Shown here one piece after another: positions 388 to 6,348 of a stretch of DNA of 6,699 bases (position 1 is its first letter; the number at the start of each line of letters is the position of its first letter). The notes beneath the pieces were generated by a model that saw only the letters and a list, made by a program, of their open reading frames with translations, made no database searches and was not told where the DNA came from. The position numbers and the translations under genes were made by a program. The stretch is taken from IMG/VR virus record IMGVR_UViG_3300001522_000241; one strand, given 5' to 3'. This stretch comes from a virus.

Positions 388-1410
388 TTAAGCGGCGTGC
401 AGTTGCGCCCAGGAAGTCACCGCTTGCGCCTCAATAATGCGCTTGCGGATCGGAACGACCTGACCTTTGGCCAGATCGGCATCACCCAGGCCAGCAGCCC
501 GGAGAATCTTCAAATTGCGGTACCAGGTCGGGCGACTCTGTAGTTCACGAGCGGCTTCCCATCCGCGCGATTGAATCAGCGCCCACAGCCCGAGGGCGGC
601 TTTAGCCTGCCCTTCCGTCTTAGCCACCTGAAAAACACGTTCCTTGAGTTCGTCTTCGCCAGTCATATCCGCATCTCCAATCATTCGCTCGAAGTAGCTG
701 CTCCACTCAGCCTTCAATTCATCGGGTTTTAACGTTAGCCAGTCATGGCGCTCGAACCATGCGCGGCCGAGCTTCAATTCCAGGCGCAAGAGGCGGTTAG
801 CATCCGCGATCTCTTGCGCCGTGTAGTTGCACCCGGTGTAGTCGGGCTTTTTCATCATGTAAGTCAGGTGAGGCCCCTTCGCGTAAGCCTTGCCAGCACG
901 GTGCTTTGATCGGTGAGACCAGTAGACGGTATCGCCAGCCTGCTGGCTGACCCGGTACCGGCCACCCTCGCACTCACGCAAAATCGAAAGCGCCTGCCGC
1001 ACCTCTGCCAGACTCGAAAGCGCCAGGTTCTCGGTCACGTCGATGCGAGACAAAATCCAGGCTTCCGGGCCGGGCAGATCGGTGCCCAGGTAGGCAGCCA
1101 CCCACCTGATCATGTGATCGGCGCAGCCGCGCAGATCGAGCGCGGCAGACGCCCCGGCACCGAACACGGCGTCACCTCTGCCGATGACCCTGGCGGGTGA
1201 CCCCTGAATCCAGAGTTCGGCCCCGCCGGCTTTCAACGCGATCTGGTGAGAATCGCTCCGGATGCTGTCCCAAGCAGCGGACGTCCAGCGTTCATCACCT
1301 GTCTGGGGGCAGTAGCGGGTGATCCGGTCGCCAATGGTCAGGCACACGGCCCTGGCGTGATCGCTGAGCTTCTCGTACGGCACCCGGATGGTGACCCAGT
1401 CGATCATCAT
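388..1410 (-). CDS. gII: Rolling-circle replication initiation protein, Ff gene II / phage CRI family
   Basis: 340 aa. N-terminus MMIDWVTIRVPY matches gIIp MIDMLVLRLPF. Other blocks also resemble M13 gIIp: IQGSPARVIGRGDAVFG vs IKASPAKVLQGHNVFG, SRIDVTENL vs SRIDATF, TVYWSHRSKHRAGKAYAK vs TVTWNETSRHRTLVAYLK, and LLRLELKL vs LVRFEARI. A GGGGGTGA Shine-Dalgarno-like run lies upstream. The start overlaps the upstream stop as ATGA. Confidence 0.9.
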   Translation of the reverse strand: MMIDWVTIRVPYEKLSDHARAVCLTIGDRITRYCPQTGDERWTSAAWDSIRSDSHQIALKAGGAELWIQGSPARVIGRGDAVFGAGASAALDLRGCADHMIRWVAAYLGTDLPGPEAWILSRIDVTENLALSSLAEVRQALSILRECEGGRYRVSQQAGDTVYWSHRSKHRAGKAYAKGPHLTYMMKKPDYTGCNYTAQEIADANRLLRLELKLGRAWFERHDWLTLKPDELKAEWSSYFERMIGDADMTGEDELKERVFQVAKTEGQAKAALGLWALIQSRGWEAARELQSRPTWYRNLKILRAAGLGDADLAKGQVVPIRKRIIEAQAVTSWAQLHAA

Positions 1411-1847: not shown

Positions 1848-2242
1848 GAGCGGCGCTCCTGCTGCCGGCGAGGCCGGGCAGGCTCACGCCCTACCCTACG
1901 GCCTGCGGCCCGAATGCCATCCGACGCCAGCGCGTGTAGAAAATCGGGGTCATGGCTGAAACGCTGAGGCCGGCGAGGCGCGGCCATGTGGCCGAGGCCG
2001 CAGGAGGCCAATACCAACTCGACGCTTTCGGAGGGAGAACACAACATCTTGTGCGCCGGCGGAACGCCTTGTGCACAAGATATGGGGTTTGCGGCGGCGA
2101 GCTTGGCGCGGCGGCGCTCGATCCAGGCGACGACGTGGCCGTCGTGGAGAGCGTAGCCCTGGTGTTCCAGGCCAAGCCAGTAAACGCCGGACTCAGCTGG
2201 CGGCGCGAAGGGGGACATGTAGGGCGAGAGCTTGACGATCAT
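1844..2242 (-). CDS. Hypothetical protein, 132 aa from the MIVKL start, function unknown
   Basis: I prefer the internal ATG at 2242 to the track start at 2281. AGGGAG lies about 8 nt upstream and this ATG overlaps the upstream stop as ATGA (2239-2242). The first ~55 codons show strong C/G third-position bias. The bias weakens around the repeat element at 2041-2091. Confidence 0.5.
   Translation of the reverse strand: MIVKLSPYMSPFAPPAESGVYWLGLEHQGYALHDGHVVAWIERRRAKLAAANPISCAQGVPPAHKMLCSPSESVELVLASCGLGHMAAPRRPQRFSHDPDFLHALASDGIRAAGRRVGREPARPRRQQERRS
2041..2091. repeat. Copy A of a 51-nt repeated element, inside the 132-aa ORF
   Basis: Ungapped alignment of 2041-2091 with 3313-3363 gives 39/51 identities. 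Conserved blocks are GTGCGCC, AACGCC, CAAGATATGGG and TTTG. It contains a 9-bp inverted repeat atcttgtgc (2046-2054) / gcacaagat (2073-2081) and the palindrome ttgtgcacaa (2069-2078). Confidence 0.7.
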
Positions 2243-2427
2243 GGACGCAGCTCCCTTCGGAGATCCCACAAAGCAATCCAACCGATGAGCACACGGGTCT
2301 GATAATCAAAGAACAACGGACATGGCGAGGCAGTGGAATCAGTGATAGCGCGGTCTTCGCACTGGACGCACAGATCCCCGAGTTCGGCGGGCTCATCGCA
2401 AAGGCGGCAGCGTTCGGTCATCCCCAT
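2239..2427 (-). CDS. Small zinc-ribbon-like protein (CxxC-x9-CxxC), first gene of the leftward operon
   Basis: 62-aa ORF. The start may instead be the third codon, ATG at 2421, which has AAGGGG 6 nt upstream. Motif is CRLC-x9-CVQC near the N-terminus. The stop overlaps the next start as ATGA. Confidence 0.5.
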   Translation of the reverse strand: MGMTERCRLCDEPAELGDLCVQCEDRAITDSTASPCPLFFDYQTRVLIGWIALWDLRRELRP

Positions 2428-2465
2428 CCCCTTGTTCTAGTTAAACCCCTGTAGGTATGCGCGCA

Positions 2466-2495
2466 GATATAGCACTAAAGGGGTATAGGCATCAA
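2466..2495 (-). promoter_or_regulatory. Candidate sigma70-type leftward promoter (TTGATG-18-TATATC)
   Basis: Minus-strand TTGATG (plus 2490-2495) and TATATC (plus 2466-2471) are separated by 18 nt. AGGGGT motifs lie in the spacer, next to the -35 and downstream. Read by eye only. Confidence 0.3.
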
Positions 2496-2508
2496 GGGGT
2501 TTAGATAA

Positions 2509-2538
2509 TTGTAGGGGTTGAACGTTAAAGGCTAGTAT
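2509..2538 (+). promoter_or_regulatory. Candidate sigma70-type rightward promoter (TTGTAG-18-TAGTAT)
   Basis: TTGTAG at 2509-2514 and TAGTAT at 2533-2538, followed by AGGAGG at 2546-2551 and the ATG at 2560. The AGGGGT copy at 2513-2518 overlaps the -35. Confidence 0.3.
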
Positions 2539-2559
2539 TGCCCGCAGGAGGAACACCGA

Positions 2560-2955
2560 ATGAAAAAGACCCTGGATTACATCGACCAGCTGGCGGCGTT
2601 GAAAGGCTGGGAAACCGACTACCAGATAGCGAAAGGCCTAGGAATCAAGACGCCGACGATGACGAGATACCGTCGCCATGGCGGAACGCTGGACAATGAC
2701 ACGGCGTGGAAAGTGGCTGAAGGCTTGGGGATTGACGCAATGGAGATCATCGCGGCGGCTGAGATCGAGCGCGCGGAACGCGCAGATAACACGGAGAAGG
2801 CGGCCGTGTGGAAGCGCCGATTTCAAGCGGTAAGCCATTCTGCTGCAACGATTCTCGGAATTATTGCACTGCCCTATGGCATCTGGCTGGCGGATCGACT
2901 CTGTATATTATGTTCAATAGAGGATCGGCCCGCGTTAAAGCGTCAAGTAGCATGA
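2560..2955 (+). CDS. HTH (Cro/CI/XRE-like) transcriptional regulator, candidate phage repressor, with a hydrophobic C-terminal segment
   Basis: 131 aa with a strong AGGAGG RBS 8 nt upstream. It has an N-terminal helix-turn-helix-like segment DYQIAKGLGIKTPTMTRYRRHG and lies divergent to the replication operon. The C-terminal stretch AATILGIIALPYGIWLA is hydrophobic. Confidence 0.75.
   Translation: MKKTLDYIDQLAALKGWETDYQIAKGLGIKTPTMTRYRRHGGTLDNDTAWKVAEGLGIDAMEIIAAAEIERAERADNTEKAAVWKRRFQAVSHSAATILGIIALPYGIWLADRLCILCSIEDRPALKRQVA
2891..2918 (+). other. dif-like Xer recombination site (candidate attP): degenerate XerC arm, TGTATA central region, 10/11 XerD arm
   Basis: 2902-2918 TGTATA-TTATGTTCAAT matches the canonical dif central region plus XerD arm TGTATA-TTATGTTAAAT at 16/17. 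The 11 nt in the XerC-arm position (2891-2901, cggatcgactc) match GGTGCGCATAA at 2/11. The site sits in a local AT-rich patch. Confidence 0.6.
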
Positions 2956-2978
2956 TCTTCCTGTAACGGGAGATCGAT

Positions 2979-3305
2979 ATGGACTTCAGAACAGCGGCCT
3001 TCGGGCTGCACCCCCGCCAAATCGCCGACCTGATCGGCGTCCACATCAGCACCGCACGGAAATACCTCAGATCTAACCAGGCACCGGCCTGGGCGTTCCA
3101 ACTCCTAACCATCCATCGACACGGCCGACTGCCGACAGACTGCCCGACCTGGTCACACTGGCGAATATCCGGAAGCTTTCTAATCGACCCGGCCGGCGTC
3201 GAATACAGCGCCGGCGACGTAATGAGCCTTTGGATCGTTGAGCAGCTGAAAGTGGAGCTGGAACGAAAGCACCGCGCCCCGGTTCAGTACCTCCTCGACG
3301 TTTAA
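2979..3305 (+). CDS. Small HTH-containing phage regulatory protein, function unknown
   Basis: 108 aa with GGGAG 7 nt upstream of the ATG. It has an N-terminal HTH-like segment PRQIADLIGVHISTARKYL, and a Trp-rich centre WSHWRISGSFLIDPAGVEY. It follows the repressor-like gene on the same strand. Confidence 0.65.
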   Translation: MDFRTAAFGLHPRQIADLIGVHISTARKYLRSNQAPAWAFQLLTIHRHGRLPTDCPTWSHWRISGSFLIDPAGVEYSAGDVMSLWIVEQLKVELERKHRAPVQYLLDV

Positions 3306-3312
3306 ACCAAAC

Positions 3313-3363
3313 ACAAGATGTGGTGCGCCAGGTTAACGCCAGGCGCGCAAGATATGGGATTTG
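3313..3363. repeat. Copy B of the 51-nt repeated element, in the convergent intergenic region
   Basis: 39/51 identical to 2041-2091. It carries two direct CAAGAT-type motifs, acacaagat (3311-3319) and gcgcaagat (3345-3353). It also has direct cgccagg repeats flanking a gttaac palindrome. Confidence 0.7.
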
Positions 3364-3387
3364 GACAGCCGCGGGGAACGGCTAACA

Positions 3388-3428
3388 GCGGGCGGGGGTG
3401 CGTCGTTCCTCCGCCTCCCCTCGCCCGC
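3388..3428. terminator. GC-rich imperfect hairpin between convergent genes; possible bidirectional terminator or ssDNA structural signal
   Basis: gcgggcggggg (3388-3398) pairs with cccctcgcccgc (3417-3428), giving 11 bp with one bulged T and an 18-nt loop. There is no clear T-tract on either side, so terminator function is uncertain. Confidence 0.3.
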
Positions 3429-3430
3429 CG

Positions 3431-4438
3431 CTAGCCGTCATCGCCGGATGACCGAGAAGGGGATTCATCGGGGGGACGCGATGGCGCCGGATCGGCGCTG
3501 GCGAGGTGGTTGAAAACGCCGTCGGCCAGGGCGCGCTTGCACATCGACAGCGACATATCCCGAATGCGGGTGCCCTGCTGGGTGTAGCAGCGGCAGTCGG
3601 ACTGATTCGGCCGAAAGGCCATGCATCCGGAAACGACCGGCACCGCCTGGACGTTCATAGCGGCCTCGCGGTAGATCGGGGCGGTGTAGGGAACGCCGGA
3701 GACGGCAGGAGTCAGCAGCTCGGCCCAGGAACCGGGTGACTGTGTGGGCATTGTGCCTGGCGCCATGGGTACGCCCTGCTCGACCGTCTGTTTTGCAGCG
3801 TCGGGATCTACGCCGCCAATGCTGAAACTGCTAAAGAACCACCACCACGCACCCGCAGCCGTGAGGACCAGGGCGCCCAGGATGTACAGCATCTTGGGCG
3901 GGTTAAACTTATGGGTATGGACCTCGGCGGAGTGATACAGGCCGAACGCCGCTTTAGGGAGCGGCTTGCGCTTCTGCGAGCAGCGGGCCAGATCGGCGCG
4001 GTTGCTCGGTGAGATGGCGCCGGTACCGCAGTGATACTCGGTGATCATCGGCGCTTGGAACGGGCGCACGTAGTGAAAGTGTTCGTTTGCGATCTTGCGG
4101 GCGTGGCTGTCCAGCAAGCCGGGCTCCTGCGTAATAAAAAACACGTCATAGCCGTAATGACGGTGCGTTTCGAGCGCGGTTAAACCATCGGGTACCGGGC
4201 GACTGGAAGGACGTACCGGGAACAGCTGCTGCGCTTCGTCGATAATAACGACTGCGCCCTCAGGAACGTTCTGACGCCAGTCCTTCGCTTGATCATCGGT
4301 CAACTCGAACCAGCCGAGGTCTGGGCTCAAATCCCGGATACCCCTGTAAAACACAGGGCGATTCTTTACGTCCTTAAAGCGGAGCAACGTGCTGGACGTC
4401 TTGCCGGCGCCCGGTGTTCCGGTGACCAGGGCGAACAT
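3431..4438 (-). CDS. gI: Zot / gene I-like assembly ATPase
   Basis: 335 aa. Walker A is GTPGAGKTS at residues 7-15 and Walker B-like VVIIDEAQ follows. A central transmembrane segment MLYILGALVLTAAGAWWWFF precedes a C-terminal domain. The start overlaps the gVI stop (TAATG). It is in the canonical position after gVI. Confidence 0.9.
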   Translation of the reverse strand: MFALVTGTPGAGKTSSTLLRFKDVKNRPVFYRGIRDLSPDLGWFELTDDQAKDWRQNVPEGAVVIIDEAQQLFPVRPSSRPVPDGLTALETHRHYGYDVFFITQEPGLLDSHARKIANEHFHYVRPFQAPMITEYHCGTGAISPSNRADLARCSQKRKPLPKAAFGLYHSAEVHTHKFNPPKMLYILGALVLTAAGAWWWFFSSFSIGGVDPDAAKQTVEQGVPMAPGTMPTQSPGSWAELLTPAVSGVPYTAPIYREAAMNVQAVPVVSGCMAFRPNQSDCRCYTQQGTRIRDMSLSMCKRALADGVFNHLASADPAPSRPPDESPSRSSGDDG

Positions 4439-4749
4439 TATTCAGCGCCCTGCCCGGCCATGAACGACAGGCGCTTGAAACCGCTGGCAACCATGATCCA
4501 GGCCAGCAGACCAAGGTGGGCGGATATCACCAGACTGATGAACACATCGACACCGGCGATACTGGCCAGGGCTAGAACATCGGAGGCGGCGCCGAAGTGC
4601 TGGCTGACCAGGTTAACCAGCTGGTCGCCAAGTTCGACGACGCCGGTATAAGCGACGACGCCCATACCAAGGGAGACCAGCACACGGCCAACCATGCCGC
4701 TGATCGCGCCGAACAGCCAAACACCGAGGGTTTGCAGGAAAGCGGGCAT
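4438..4749 (-). CDS. gVI: gVI-like minor coat / membrane protein
   Basis: 103 aa, very hydrophobic with several predicted membrane helices. It lies between the gIII analogue and gI, with 1-nt overlaps at both ends (TGATG, TAATG). Assigned mainly from position and composition. Confidence 0.7.
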   Translation of the reverse strand: MPAFLQTLGVWLFGAISGMVGRVLVSLGMGVVAYTGVVELGDQLVNLVSQHFGAASDVLALASIAGVDVFISLVISAHLGLLAWIMVASGFKRLSFMAGQGAE

Positions 4750-6152
4750 CAGTCAGATCCTCCGGAGAATTTGCGCAGGATGATCAGCGCGGACATGAGG
4801 TAGCCGAGGGCGATAACGATCGGCCGGACCATCGCGGCCCAGTCGCAGATCGGCTCCCAGGACAGGGTAAAAGAGCCTCCGAAGGCTCCTGGCATCGAGA
4901 AAGTGCGATCAGCCGGGCACGCGAGATTGCCGAAGCTGATGGTGTCCTCTGAAAGACCGGCGACGACAGTGCCGGCATCGAGAGTGGCGGAGGGGATCGC
5001 GTTATCAGGCTGGCCGTCACCGTCGCCGTCCTCGCTGCTGGTGATCGAGGGGCCTTCGAGATATTCCTCATCGCCGACGAAATCCCGATGCTCGGTTGTG
5101 GCGTCACAACGGACGTGGAAAAGCTCGATCGCGAGAGCGCACTGGATGGCGTCCATATTGTCGGAGCACTCCGGCTCCACGCGCTCGCCGGGTTCGCAGG
5201 TACCGCCATCGTGATAGCCGTCGCCGGGTTCGTTGCCGTCACCCTCGCCGTCGTCTATGCCACCGGGCTCACCGTCGGGAATGCCGTTGCCGTCGCCGTC
5301 TTGCTCACCGTCCGGAGTGCCGTCGCCATCGGCGTCGGGATCATCAGGATTGGGGTCATCGGCGTTAGGAATACCGTCGCCATCGCTGTCGGCGCTGCCG
5401 TCGCTATCAGACGGTTCCTCATAATTGGGGTCATCCTGACCGCAGTACCAGTCACCGGTAGAACCACCGGCCTCATTACAACTTTCATCTGTTTCTGGTG
5501 CACGACAATAGGTCTGACCATTAGGAGCAGTAACGCTGTTTGGACAGCCGCCGCCACCACCGGGACAGTACCGACCATCGAACCCCTGATAACAACCATC
5601 CTCATCCGTATATTCGTCCCACGGTTCCGAAGGCTCAGCACCGTCAGACTCATCGCAGTAAACACCGGTGCTGGTGGCGTCGTAGAAATACCGCCGCACG
5701 CCGTTAACCTGAATCCAAGGCACTGAACCGGAGGAGCTCGTGGTCATTACGCAATTGGAATAACAGGCATCCGAACCAAGCGGAGAGGAGGAAACGACCT
5801 GCTGAGTCTCTCCGGCGGGAATCGGGCATTCAGTGATGGGACCGAAACACAAATAACCGCCAGGATTTGCGGGATCAGGTCCTAGACGAGGAAACGACGA
5901 TGACGAGCAATAAACCGCCCTATACTGCGTATTGCCGTTAGAATCAGTAAATGGATCGCAAACACCGCTATGATACGATGATAAAAACGCCCCACAATCC
6001 TCCTGATAATAAAATTGTTTAGTTAATGGAGCGACGCCCTCAGCGGCCGAAACAAACGACGCTAACGAACAGAGAGCAAGCCCCACAACGAGACCAGCAC
6101 AACGAAGAAGTAAAGCCACGGACCAAAATCCCCTTCCATAATCACCTCCCAT
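4749..6152 (-). CDS. gIII: gIII-like adsorption / minor coat protein with a Cys-rich N-domain, acidic repeat linker and C-terminal anchor
   Basis: I prefer the start at the ATG at 6152 (MGGDYGRGFWSVALLL), which has GGGAG 6 nt upstream. The track start at 6266 would run through the terminator and gVIII. It has a signal-peptide-like N-terminus ending VSA/AEG, many Cys in the first ~280 mature residues, and a D/G/P-rich tract. The C-terminal hydrophobic anchor is IVIALGYLMSALIIL followed by RK. Confidence 0.75.
   Translation of the reverse strand: MGGDYGRGFWSVALLLRCAGLVVGLALCSLASFVSAAEGVAPLTKQFYYQEDCGAFLSSYHSGVCDPFTDSNGNTQYRAVYCSSSSFPRLGPDPANPGGYLCFGPITECPIPAGETQQVVSSSPLGSDACYSNCVMTTSSSGSVPWIQVNGVRRYFYDATSTGVYCDESDGAEPSEPWDEYTDEDGCYQGFDGRYCPGGGGGCPNSVTAPNGQTYCRAPETDESCNEAGGSTGDWYCGQDDPNYEEPSDSDGSADSDGDGIPNADDPNPDDPDADGDGTPDGEQDGDGNGIPDGEPGGIDDGEGDGNEPGDGYHDGGTCEPGERVEPECSDNMDAIQCALAIELFHVRCDATTEHRDFVGDEEYLEGPSITSSEDGDGDGQPDNAIPSATLDAGTVVAGLSEDTISFGNLACPADRTFSMPGAFGGSFTLSWEPICDWAAMVRPIVIALGYLMSALIILRKFSGGSD
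5205..5432 (-). repeat. Asp/Gly/Pro-rich tract encoding tandem DxDxDGxxDxxD-type (thrombospondin type 3-like) repeats
   Basis: The translated tract includes DSDGDGIPNADD, DADGDGTPDGEQD and DGDGNGIPDGE (core at 5268-5390). A fourth copy, DGDGDGQPDNA, is encoded at 4995-5030. The biased composition also creates long spurious ORFs on both strands here. Confidence 0.6.
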
Positions 6153-6185
6153 TTTTATCTCCCAAAGACCGGTAGTCGCTCGGAG

Positions 6186-6210
6186 ATAAAAATGGCCCCC
6201 GAAGGGGCCA
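6186..6210 (-). terminator. Rho-independent terminator downstream of the major coat gene
   Basis: On the minus strand the stem is TGGCCCC-TTCG-GGGGCCA (7 bp with a UUCG-type tetraloop, plus 6193-6210). ATTTTTAT follows immediately. It starts 7 nt after the gVIII stop and lies upstream of the gIII RBS, the classic inovirus arrangement. Confidence 0.85.
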
Positions 6211-6216
6211 CCCTGA

Positions 6217-6348
6217 TTAACGTCCCAGCATGCTCTTGACTTGCCGGAACGCCCAGATGCCTGCAATCACAGTCACCACAGCCAGACCAATCGGAGACAG
6301 GTCGGTGAGTGCACCGGTGATCGCAGTATCAACGCCGGTAAAATCCAT
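6217..6348 (-). CDS. gVIII: Major coat protein, 43 aa with no signal peptide (gVIII analogue, Pf3-like organisation)
   Basis: Absent from the ORF track because it is short; I translated it by hand as MDFTGVDTAITGALTDLSPIGLAVVTVIAGIWAFRQVKSMLGR. It has an acidic N-terminus, a hydrophobic core and a basic C-terminus (R, K, R). GGAG lies 7 nt upstream and a strong terminator follows directly. Confidence 0.8.
   Translation of the reverse strand: MDFTGVDTAITGALTDLSPIGLAVVTVIAGIWAFRQVKSMLGR

Follow-up and report, generated by a model that had tools for sequence, protein, structure and literature searches.

CTX-phi is the best-known dif-integrating inovirus; to our knowledge, how dif-integrating filamentous phages sense or stabilize lysogeny is little understood outside this phage. 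In the int/sib arrangement of phage lambda, a gene and an RNase III site further downstream are separated by the attachment site; the RNase III site works through mRNA stability, and integration changes the output of the gene.

A precedent for a regulator gene that is altered by integration at dif is ORF13 of the Ralstonia phage RSS0, in which integration creates a new stop codon and shortens the product from 156 to 130 aa (Yamada 2013, Front Microbiol 4:325, PMC3816273). Its authors proposed a functional difference between the full-length and the truncated forms; the junctions had been obtained by inverse PCR from a single strain, and unpublished data were cited for the functional work (PMC3816273). 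No follow-up of this 2013 hypothesis was found in the literature searched. For PM2-like double jelly-roll (DJR) phages, a module of a repressor gene, a 17-bp one-armed attP (half-dif) and xafT has been described, in which attP is placed between p15 and p16 and both genes form the prophage termini (PMC12715192); an overlap with the repressor ORF, a truncation or stop codons are not mentioned in that paper (0 occurrences). TLC-phi of Vibrio cholerae likewise integrates at dif and has an HTH-DUF3653 protein (Midonet 2019 PNAS PMC6744903; Miele 2022 NAR PMC9226527). One of the two arms of its site is degenerate, and its central region is fully homologous to dif, so that complete, reversible recombination is possible. 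XafT activates XerD and tolerates varied XerD arms (PMC6744903, PMC9226527).

Organization of the Phage Genome

The stretch of DNA analyzed here (the window, 6,699 nt) has a 31-nt terminal overlap, which gives a complete circular genome of 6668 nt. We regard it as the circular replicative form of a 6.67-kb inovirus (filamentous phage) of Alloalcanivorax/Alcanivorax, oil-degrading marine bacteria. Pfam and PHROG matches among the window ORFs include Rep, G5P, Zot, DUF2523, coat and HTH proteins, and the same scans revealed no element-encoded integrase or recombinase. A megablast search of the whole window against 50,697 phage records gave no match, and thus no close cultured relative; a search of 185,579 representative genomes with the repressor alignment gave no relative either, so that prophages of this phage family are seen only in metagenome assemblies. 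The features of the locus are collected in Table 1. The control region separates the repressor gene from the leftward genes, and scans of positions 2200-3500 for sigma-70 promoters and intrinsic terminators returned nothing, a consensus scan being weak evidence on promoters.

Table 1. Coordinates of the features discussed, as positions in the window.
Feature	Position	Strand	Basis or remark
Rolling-circle replication initiator	388..1410	-	PF05144 Phage_CRI, E 5e-18; phrog_702, E 8e-38
Divergent control region, presumed operator/promoter	2428..2559	.	Repeated GGGGT-type motifs, read straight from the sequence
Repressor-like HTH gene, 131 aa in the circular (episomal) form	2560..2955	+	ATG start, TGA stop; ORF listing, PHROG, AlphaFold2
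attP left flank at the XerC-arm position, CGGATCGACTC	2891..2901	+	Coding A111-D-R-L114; 9/11 mismatches to E. coli dif
attP central region TGTATA, codons C115 and I116	2902..2907	+	Identical to host dif; inferred strand-exchange site
attP XerD-binding arm, TTATGTTCAAT	2908..2918	+	10/11 positions as in canonical/host TTATGTTAAAT; C2915 gives TCA instead of TAA
Episome-specific tail, codons 119-131, SIEDRPALKRQVA	2914..2952	+	Moved to the attL end of the prophage on integration
HTH + DUF3653 gene, 108 aa, XafT-like (ORF108), candidate Xer recombination activation factor	2979..3305	+	Starts 23 nt after the repressor stop
Zot/pI-type assembly ATPase	3431..4438	-	PF05707 Zot, E 1.5e-20; phrog_197, E 1e-64

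The N-terminal part of the repressor matches the phage HTH regulator families phrog_4441 (E 3.9e-17) and phrog_638 (E 1.2e-15), and residues 1-74 form a confident five-helix HTH domain in the AlphaFold2 model. Approximately residues 78-118 make up a long hydrophobic helix, followed by a basic 13-residue tail (S119-A131). From residue 93 onwards the pLDDT of the model, based on 11 sequences, is below 50, and the model says nothing on the tail or on membrane insertion. The Kyte-Doolittle hydropathy of residues 98-116 is borderline at 1.64, and lower in the group of contig L019; that the repressor is membrane-anchored is our conjecture. For codons 84-114, just 5' of the site, dN/dS was 0.06-0.49 and pS 0.24-0.70 in 11 pairs of relatives. 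A reading of 2560-2955 as a chance ORF was rejected on account of the PHROG regulator matches and the low dN/dS. Homologues of the repressor are also found in PM2-like contigs (L112, L113), and three homologues (P0002, P0003, and P0005) are exactly 118 aa long.

The attP Site Inside the Repressor Gene

As the preliminary description had stated, the repressor ORF is in frame across the site, with C115 (TGT) at 2902, I116 (ATA) at 2905, L117 (TTA) at 2908, C118 (TGT) at 2911 and S119 (TCA) at 2914-2916. Base 2915 is indeed the only mismatch to the canonical XerD arm, which would place TAA at codon 119. Together, TGTATA and TTATGTTCAAT are identical to the dif central region and XerD arm at 16/17 positions. 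The sequence TGTATATTATGTTCAAT at 2902-2918 is the sole match to TGTATATTATGTTAAAT with at most two mismatches on both strands of the window, and none of 200 dinucleotide-preserving shuffles contained a match.

The designation of the site as dif-like holds for the central region and the XerD arm and fails on the XerC side. There, the left flank CGGATCGACTC is unlike the host XerC arm ACTACGTGTAA, and the left flanks of relatives (CCGATAAACTC, CCGATCAACTC and similar) vary like coding sequence. As these 11 nt lack likeness to dif, the site is a one-armed 17-bp attP and not a full 28-bp dif. The preliminary description mentioned neither the absent XerC arm, nor the RSS0 precedent, nor the XafT-like gene that is cut off by integration.

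Junctions of Integrated Copies

In metagenome contigs, prophages of the phage family occupy the dif of Alloalcanivorax/Alcanivorax in at least three host contexts. The host dif reads ACTACGTGTAA, TGTATA and TTATGTTAAAT; the last of these, which recurs at 85 genome loci and at each attR junction, is the arm that had been presumed from the phage sequence. Every right junction recovered (attR; L001, L002, L003, L005-L009, L011-L013, L015, L018, and L111) consists of the phage left arm, TGTATA and host TTATGTTAAAT, and ends TGT TAA. The shortening of the repressor on integration, proposed beforehand, is thus borne out: the ORF is 116-119 aa long at attR and 129-134 aa at attP, and none of these right junctions carries it at full length. 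That a host base creates the stop at codon 119 is thereby confirmed at the level of junction sequences.

The left junctions all retain the phage arm, a tail of 12-16 codons (13 in the window phage) and the next gene, with attL remnants of the form ...TGTATATTATGTTCAATAGAGGATC...GCATGA in L001, L002, L006, L011, and L012. Hybrid attL and attR sites at dif were present in L001 (attL at 3710, attR at 10343), L002, L005, L006, L011, L012, L015, and L018. These hybrids place the crossover within 13 identical bases, TGTATATTATGTT, shared by the site and the host dif, which is consistent with the earlier proposal of an exchange in the central region. A. venustensis ISO4 (L092) has an empty attB (ACTACGTGTAATGTATATTATGTTAAAT); compared with the host DNA on either side of prophage L006, its flanks are identical at 95.4% on the left and 97.6% on the right. 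On L011, attL, attP, and attR all lie on one contig. We downgraded a real tandem prophage as the explanation, as both copies are 100% identical; the contig could be an assembler path through a prophage and a free replicative form.

The element thus has no recombinase of its own, carries a dif-like attP and is found as a prophage at dif between hybrid attL and attR sites, as expected for an IMEX (integrative mobile element exploiting Xer). We infer that integration depends on Xer from the site alone, that is, from the likeness of attP to dif. In the mechanism that we propose, host XerC/XerD would integrate the integrase-less phage at dif, the chromosome dimer-resolution site. The control region, the repressor gene and, 23 nt further on, the XafT-like gene would form the module, with the last 17 repressor codons crossing the one-armed attP (TGTATA and TTATGTTCAAT). 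As the junction sequences show, exchange, placed in the central region, joins the repressor gene to host TTATGTTAAAT and changes codon 119 from TCA to TAA, so that the prophage encodes a 118-aa repressor ending ...LCILC. The 13-codon tail and the XafT-like gene are carried to the opposite end of the prophage, at a distance of ~6.5 kb, where host DNA precedes them. This explanation as a whole, an IMEX with its lysogeny module laid out as one rightward unit and a repressor that is truncated by integration at dif, is in our judgement very probably correct.

A site of the CTX-phi type, suggested by the prominence of that inovirus among dif-integrating phages and requiring an ssDNA hairpin that pairs two inverted dif-like half sites for a single strand-pair exchange by XerC, is highly improbable and was rejected, because the window has a single dif-like site, neither strand of 2870-2960 folds better than shuffled sequence (z-scores -0.55 and -0.49), the central region is identical to that of the host, and the junctions are simple reciprocal products.

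Comparison With Described Systems

The locus closely resembles that of RSS0. The HTH regulator ORF13 of RSS0 (GenBank JQ408219) is homologous to the repressor (pairwise BLASTP E 2e-12; 31% identity over 98 aa) and likewise has a hydrophobic segment after its HTH domain; in both phages, the gene runs counter to the structural genes. In both phages, a dif-like attP in the 3' end of the regulator gene, in the same frame (ATC TTA TGT then AAA in RSS0, host TAA), leads to a new stop on integration, and attP is without a XerC-like arm (AGGTCAACGA in RSS0). The two differ in host (Betaproteobacteria for RSS0, Gammaproteobacteria here), in central region (TTTATC versus TGTATA), in the substitution that removes the stop (T7-to-A, Lys, versus A8-to-C, Ser) and in the length of the tail (26 versus 13 aa). 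No XafT-like ORF was seen downstream of ORF13.

With the PM2-like/DJR phages, the locus shares the order of the three components, the 17-bp one-armed attP, integration at dif without a phage integrase, and the fate of the repressor and XafT-like genes as terminal prophage genes, whereas attP here lies inside coding sequence. The arms are the reverse of those of TLC-phi, where the XerD arm is degenerate and the XerC arm intact; here the XerD arm is conserved at 10/11 positions and the XerC side is unrelated. In addition, the similarity of ORF108 to XafT is distant (32.8 bits versus a family cut-off of 70). The VGJ-phi type, with both arms and a central region homologous to dif on the XerC side alone, does not fit the site either, which lacks a XerC arm and shares all 6 bp of TGTATA with the host. 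As in lambda int/sib, attP parts a gene from a downstream element, so that expression reflects integration, but the parts affected here are a stop codon with a C-terminal tail and possibly a downstream cistron, and the systems are not homologous.

Stop-Removing Arms and the Tail

All phage-side arms from circular contigs or attL remnants carry a stop-removing TCA or CAA, followed by a tail of 12-16 codons. At least 19 phage-side arms in the frame of the window were checked and all remove the stop: TCA is found in the window, L016, and L019-L022, CAA in L014, L017, L110, and the attL of L015, and AAA in RSS0. The three different substitutions all fall within the 3-nt TAA of the 11-nt arm, and the three variants may not be independent events. 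Two relatives in which the site is read in other frames (L112 in frame 2, YIMLN; L114 in frame 3, VYYVK) served as controls; in both, the homologous repressor gene contains TGTATATTATGTTAAAT without any deviation, and the genes downstream of the site are phage genes. Because all arms in the frame of the window are altered within the would-be TAA and the relatives in other frames keep the canonical arm, we consider it probable, though well short of assured, that selection keeps the frame open in the episomal form. There are 26 family representatives that end at xILC, of which part were checked at the DNA level; the argument for selection would lose strength if some of them were canonical-arm episomal phages, which they could be.

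The overlap of repressor gene and site may also be incidental, a reading that we take seriously and place somewhat below an even chance. Repressor function would then extend no further than residue 118, the short and the long form (118 and 131 aa) would be equivalent, and the tail would be a harmless run-on, so that integration would have no regulatory importance at the protein level. The deviation of the arm would be drift, tolerated because XafT-assisted recombination is permissive at the outer arm positions, and XafT is known to widen the range of usable XerD-arm sequences (PMC9226527). The tails themselves agree with such a reading in that their sequences diverge freely (SIEDRPALKRQVA, QIDHRSSLRARLGF, SIDYLSGKGARSAF, and QIGHGRRFGRMA), with three non-synonymous changes versus one synonymous change among close relatives; the tail offers too few sites for dN/dS, and the divergent tails do not align. 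At the G+C content of the window, 12-16 open codons in a row are ordinary. When stops were counted in the three frames 3' of the site, one frame always stopped at ATAG and the other was as open as the coding frame, so that the length of the open frame is no evidence of selection. Moreover, the prophage, the state that needs the repressor, manages with the 118-aa form. The preliminary description had named relatives in which the ORF ends well upstream of the site as evidence against a link with integration, and one such case exists: in the distant Vibrio DJR phage PQ189321, ~70 nt separate the end of the repressor gene, with a 90-aa product (42% identical over 57 aa), from the dif-like site downstream of it. 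All close relatives and RSS0 run through the site.

What speaks against an incidental overlap is the uniformity of the arms. Neutrality, combined with any preference of XerD for its consensus, predicts that canonical arms should be common in the frame of the window, whereas the stop is lost in each of the arms checked there and the canonical arm is retained in the other frames. The tails also keep a narrow range of lengths (12-16 aa in the clade) and a net positive charge, if not their sequence. That the basic tail alters the activity or the membrane association of the repressor, in which case the protein would be a read-out of the integration state, is doubtful, if possible; the data speak neither for nor against the suggestion of the preliminary description that the C-terminus reports integration.

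The XafT-Like Gene and Possible Operon Continuity

In all relatives in which downstream sequence is present, the site is followed after 58-83 nt by a homologue of ORF108. ORF108 matches NF040522 of NCBIfam (VC1465 family Xer recombination activation factor; E 5.9e-8) below the curated cut-off, with residues 8-93 aligned on positions 8-94 of the 111 of the profile. For DUF3653 (PF12375), 10/10 family members scanned match, with a best E of 3.6e-8; the window protein scores 19.3 bits, the cut-off being 22.4. A tblastn search of ORF108 against the phage records gave no match. From these similarities, we classify ORF108 as a probable distant XafT/VC1465-family (DUF3653) protein and a putative Xer activator. 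It is the terminal gene at attL, the opposite prophage end from the repressor, and therefore integration also separates ORF108 from the repressor gene.

If ORF108 activates Xer, the switch could be transcriptional or translational instead of C-terminal. The repressor gene and ORF108 would be one operon across attP, in which translation must reach to within ~20-30 nt of the ORF108 start for efficient expression, and the TAA that would otherwise stand 65 nt upstream is removed for this reason. Integration would cut the operon, silence the putative Xer activator and lock in the single-copy prophage, and tandem copies or the replicative form would restore it. Between the repressor stop and the ATG of ORF108 the window has 23 nt, the L014/L019 group ~18 nt and L017 30 nt, and no terminator-like or promoter-like site was found in the scan between the two genes. 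The host gene that precedes attL in L001 points the other way, so that ORF108 receives no read-through. In PM2-like phages, p16 and p15 are one operon flanking attP (PMC12715192). On the other hand, in L005 and L013 the two genes are 49 nt apart, with a small palindrome in between, so that not every case shows tight coupling; consensus scans carry little weight as evidence that a promoter is absent; and ORF108 may serve in packaging after induction, for which it would need a promoter of its own. Both the placing of the switch in the operon and not in the C-terminus, and the broader proposal that repressor-xafT continuity across attP matters, with integration switching off the putative Xer activator and stabilizing the single-copy prophage, are doubtful, if possible. 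The effects proposed for the tail and for operon continuity are not mutually exclusive.

The packaging role brings in a counter-example. PSB15, a DUF3653 protein of the Xanthomonas phage phiLf-UK, binds the packaging signal, is needed for assembly and is dispensable for integration (bioRxiv 10.1101/2024.03.19.585677); DUF3653 alone is thus no proof of an Xer activator, which would bind XerD and stimulate its catalysis without FtsK, and ORF108 may not be one. That ORF108 is a PSB15-like protein binding a packaging signal, with a position beside attP unrelated to recombination, would fit its scores below the curated Pfam and NCBIfam cut-offs. We consider this unlikely, as ORF108 aligns over its full length with the VC1465/XafT profile, resembles XafT in having its HTH domain at the N-terminus and DUF3653 at the C-terminus (in PSB15, DUF3653 is N-terminal), and always adjoins attP, like xafT in CTX-I and DJR IMEXs.

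Occurrence and Significance

The layout is not new in kind, given the RSS0 precedent of 2013 and the published repressor-attP-xafT module. What appears to be new is the breadth of dif-encoded C-terminal peptides across the family: approximately two thirds of the 149 best representatives of the family, which has 3111 members, have one, in all six frame/orientation classes. A generalization of this, which we regard as speculative and rather improbable, is that a very large Xer-exploiting family, with inoviruses as well as PM2-like double jelly-roll phages, conserves the placement of the repressor 3' end across a dif-like attP as a design, which would then be more than the oddity of a single phage. 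The tail of a regulator with a hydrophobic and perhaps membrane-inserting helix would be swapped or deleted, the Xer activator would be unlinked, and frame-specific arm changes that avoid a stop would be selected. Under such a design, the regulator would differ according to whether the genome is free, tandem, or integrated as a single copy, and the tail would be swapped, or deleted where the host arm supplies TAA.

The junctions described here give a sequence-level example, from independent metagenomes, of a regulator protein that is rewritten by integration, with a host base providing the stop. Different base changes maintain the layout in phages of Beta- and Gammaproteobacteria, which have it in common, and hundreds of repressor clusters show it again in other frames, which turns an anecdote into a testable general question. 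A C-terminal ...ILC, or YIMLN, VYYVK, IHYAQ, or YTLC in other frames, marks the exact prophage boundary, and such ends tell integrated from free copies in metagenomes.

The repressor gene and its one-armed attP

ORF131 is a genuine gene, since it matches the HTH regulator families phrog_4441 and phrog_638, its residues 1-74 are modeled by AlphaFold2 as a confident five-helix HTH domain, and codons 84-114 are under purifying selection (dN/dS 0.06-0.49). The site is read in frame, as described from the sequence, with TGT ATA TTA TGT TCA encoding C115-S119, and the C at position 2915 is what sets TTATGTTCAAT apart from TTATGTTAAAT, the canonical XerD arm, with which codon 119 would be TAA. The site had been described as dif-like; this holds for the central region and the XerD arm, but the 11 nt on the XerC side, CGGATCGACTC, are ordinary coding sequence. 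The 17-mer is the sole match in the window at up to two mismatches, and matches were obtained in 0 of 200 dinucleotide-preserving shuffles. A folded single-stranded site of the CTX type was rejected, as the window has one dif-like site and neither strand of 2870-2960 folds better than shuffled sequence. The likeness between phage and Alcanivorax runs a few bases past the XerD arm (2919-2925; AGAGGAT in the phage, AGAGGAT or AGAAGAT in the host loci L041, L045, L074, and L092), possibly the sign of a longer recognition sequence or of an earlier exchange with the host.

Integration shortens the repressor

Close homologues found by protein search are of two kinds, of 129-134 aa with a tail after ...LCILC and of 116-119 aa ending at ...LCILC. 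In junctions read from the fetched contigs of homologues and from related viral contigs, the short forms were without exception located at right prophage ends, where the phage left flank is followed by TGTATA, TTATGTTAAAT and host DNA, and the ORF ends TGT TAA (L001, L002, L003, L005-L009, L011-L013, L015, L018, and L111). The left junctions of the same prophages consist of host ACTACGTGTAA, TGTATA and phage TTATGTTCAAT (or TTATGTCAAAT), after which come the tail codons, now orphaned, and the next phage gene. Together, the two junctions place the crossover within the common TGTATATTATGTT, the position expected of a central-region exchange. With attP, attB, attL, and attR all recovered, the attR junctions bear out the proposal of the preliminary description that integration creates a stop codon that shortens the repressor.

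One contig (L011, 43-13133) contains, in order, attL, a phage copy, an intact attP with the 131-aa ORF, a second copy, and attR with the 118-aa ORF. Its two copies (6532 nt each) are 100% identical, so the contig represents a genuine tandem prophage or else a path taken by the assembler through a prophage and the free replicative form. At the right junction of L111 (1505-1530), which has the same A. venustensis-type host flank, the central region is TATATA instead of TGTATA (...LYILC instead of ...LCILC); phage and host can thus differ at the first base of this region.

In a scan of representative genomes the reconstructed host site was intact in Alloalcanivorax, Alcanivorax, and Marinobacter salicampi, and many Pseudomonas carried it with a slightly altered outer XerC arm. 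Both flanks of the intact site in A. venustensis ISO4 are 95-98% identical to the host flanks of the L006 prophage, and this site is an empty attB. For the clade of the window, the host flanks were of at least three kinds; more distant relatives added two further ones, with a CGCATAA-type XerC arm. The unusual XerC arm ..ACGTGTAA instead of ..GCGCATAA is common to Alcanivorax/Alloalcanivorax, M. salicampi, and many fluorescens-group Pseudomonas, and GTTACGTGTAA occurs in 62 of the 85 loci of the genome scan (L023-L102 range). The phage-type XerD arm (C variant) adjoined that XerC arm in none of the representative genomes scanned, so none of these holds a prophage of this family.

Relation to RSS0 and breadth of the overlap

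Truncation of the repressor by integration has already been described in a homologous phage. In the Ralstonia phage RSS0, attP (dif) lies inside ORF13, an HTH regulator in reversed orientation; integration "creates a new stop codon," shortening the protein from 156 to 130 aa, and a possible functional difference between the two forms was proposed, with support cited as unpublished (Yamada 2013, PMC3816273). No later paper on this proposal was found in the literature searched. ORF13 is homologous to the window ORF (31% identity over 98 aa, pairwise E 2e-12), its site is read in the same frame (TTT ATC TTA TGT AAA, the host arm giving TGT TAA), and its attP likewise has no XerC-like arm. In 2025, a study of prophage borders in Vibrio described dif-like attP sites that are one-armed and 17 bp long, together with a repressor-attP-xafT module conserved across inoviruses and PM2-like phages, with both genes as prophage termini; it makes no mention of an overlap with the repressor ORF or of truncation (PMC12715192). 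As truncation and module are both published, the window is not the first of its kind.

Apparently new is the removal of the would-be TAA in three ways, all inside its three bases: TCA (window and many relatives), CAA (L014, L017, L110, and the attL of L015), and AAA (RSS0). A repressor profile search of 1.84 billion cluster representatives yielded 3111 family members (503 at E <= 1e-10). Among the best 149 of these 3111, 26 end at xILC, in 21 the xILC continues with Q, K, or S and a tail, and many others contain dif-core peptides from other frames or the opposite strand (YIMLN, VYYVK, IHYAQ, YTLC). A five-residue window encodable within one nucleotide of the core is present in 47 of the 149, compared to 0.8 expected from shuffled sequences, and overlap is found in approximately 95 once xILC ends are included. 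Three of the other-frame or other-strand cases were checked on DNA: the site is read in frame 2 in L112 (a PM2-like phage), in frame 3 in L114, and in L116 (an inovirus prophage) from the opposite strand across the XerC side. In L112 and L114 the canonical arm brings no in-frame stop, and the attP core matches the canonical sequence throughout (17/17). This small natural control favors the earlier view that the deviation in the window would exist to keep the frame open. The breadth of this overlap seems new so far as the searchable literature goes, and it merits systematic study across the family.

Homologues of the window repressor are also found in PM2-like double jelly-roll phages that have P2 capsid domains and in contigs with phage lysozyme (L112 6661-7158, L113, L114 89-544), each time reading through a one-armed dif-like site, in agreement with the published transfer of lysogeny modules between inoviruses and these phages.

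The XafT-like gene and the repressor tail

In all relatives for which the downstream sequence is available, the site is followed at 58-83 nt by a homologue of the XafT-like gene (ORF108). ORF108 aligns over its full length to NCBIfam NF040522 ("VC1465 family Xer recombination activation factor"; E 5.9e-8, short of the curated cut-off), and Pfam DUF3653 is matched by 10/10 family members scanned (best E 3.6e-8). VC1465, the XafT of TLC-phi, activates XerD in an FtsK-independent manner and broadens the set of XerD arms that can be used (PMC6744903, PMC9226527). As a caveat to such a role for ORF108, PSB15 of Xanthomonas phage phiLf-UK, a DUF3653 packaging-signal-binding protein, is dispensable for integration. 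In the integrated form the XafT-like gene is at the far prophage end, downstream of host DNA, and in L001 the adjacent host gene is in the opposite orientation; a scan of the interval between repressor and XafT-like gene in the circular form found no terminator-like or promoter-like site. From this arrangement, integration probably breaks an operon besides shortening the repressor.

The tails fall within a narrow length range (12-16 aa in the clade of the window, 26 aa in RSS0) and stay net positive in charge, but their sequences drift. Tail substitutions among close relatives are few and mostly non-synonymous, and one alternative frame is as open as the coding frame. By its hydrophobicity, the C-terminal helix is borderline for a membrane segment in the window and RSS0, not in the L019 group, and the AlphaFold2 model is uninformative over this helix. 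We consider selection for read-through of the site fairly probable. That the overlap is functionally silent at the protein level is somewhat doubtful. That the tail modifies the repressor protein is rather unlikely, as is the reading in which what matters is operon continuity with the XafT-like gene. The functional interpretation first offered, that the C-terminus of the regulator would report the integration state, is plausible.

Organization of the phage genome

Identical 31 nt at both termini of the 6699 nt indicate that the window is a circular genome of 6668 nt. It codes for an inovirus gene set, with no integrase or other recombinase found among its genes; none of 50,697 deposited phage genomes is a near relative.

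Features of the phage genome
Feature	Position	Strand	Remark
ssDNA-binding protein	83-370	minus	PF02303
Rolling-circle initiator	388-1410	minus	PF05144
Repressor (ORF131)	2560-2955	plus	131 aa
attP	2902-2918		
XafT-like gene (ORF108)	2979-3305	plus	108 aa; starts 23 nt past repressor stop
Zot/pI ATPase	3431-4438	minus	PF05707
DUF2523 protein	4438-4749	minus	
Receptor-binding-type protein, large (pIII-like)	4749-6266	minus	505 aa
Coat protein B	6217-6348	minus	43 aa

The pIII-like protein contains an extended Asp/Gly/Pro-rich tract of imperfect repeats (approximately 5013-5435; DGDGxPD-like, resembling calcium-binding motifs), and its C-terminal 75 aa show weak similarity to Neisseria TspB (E 6e-4). 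It is the hypervariable part of the genome, as the homologue in close relatives is far shorter (314-324 aa versus 505 aa), and is probably a host-range determinant. Within the 5' part of the listed ORF, just 3' of the coat gene, lies an inverted repeat (6149-6195; 21-nt arms, 86% complementary, 5-nt loop), probably a terminator or attenuator behind the major coat gene, which points to a true pIII start 3' of the listed TTG.

The divergent control region (2428-2559) contains several GGGGT-type motifs (AAGGGGTATAGG, AAGGGGTTTAGA, TAGGGGTTGAAC, and inverted AACCCCTGTAGG) that look like operator repeats; a sigma-70 consensus scan of this region found no promoter. A 54-nt direct repeat (2038-2091 and 3310-3363, 78% identical), each copy of which is itself a hairpin (arms 2038-2054/2073-2089), encloses the entire lysogeny module, from the leftward small ORFs and the control region through repressor and attP to the XafT-like gene. 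Its core, CAAGAT[AG]TGGG, occurs twice at matching positions in L001, L011, and L016 and once in L002, and is absent from L005, L014, L019, and L020, which are more distant. Recombination at the repeat could delete the module (compare RSS1, which is without the 626-nt ORF13/attP element of RSS0); alternatively, the repeat could be an origin or packaging element.
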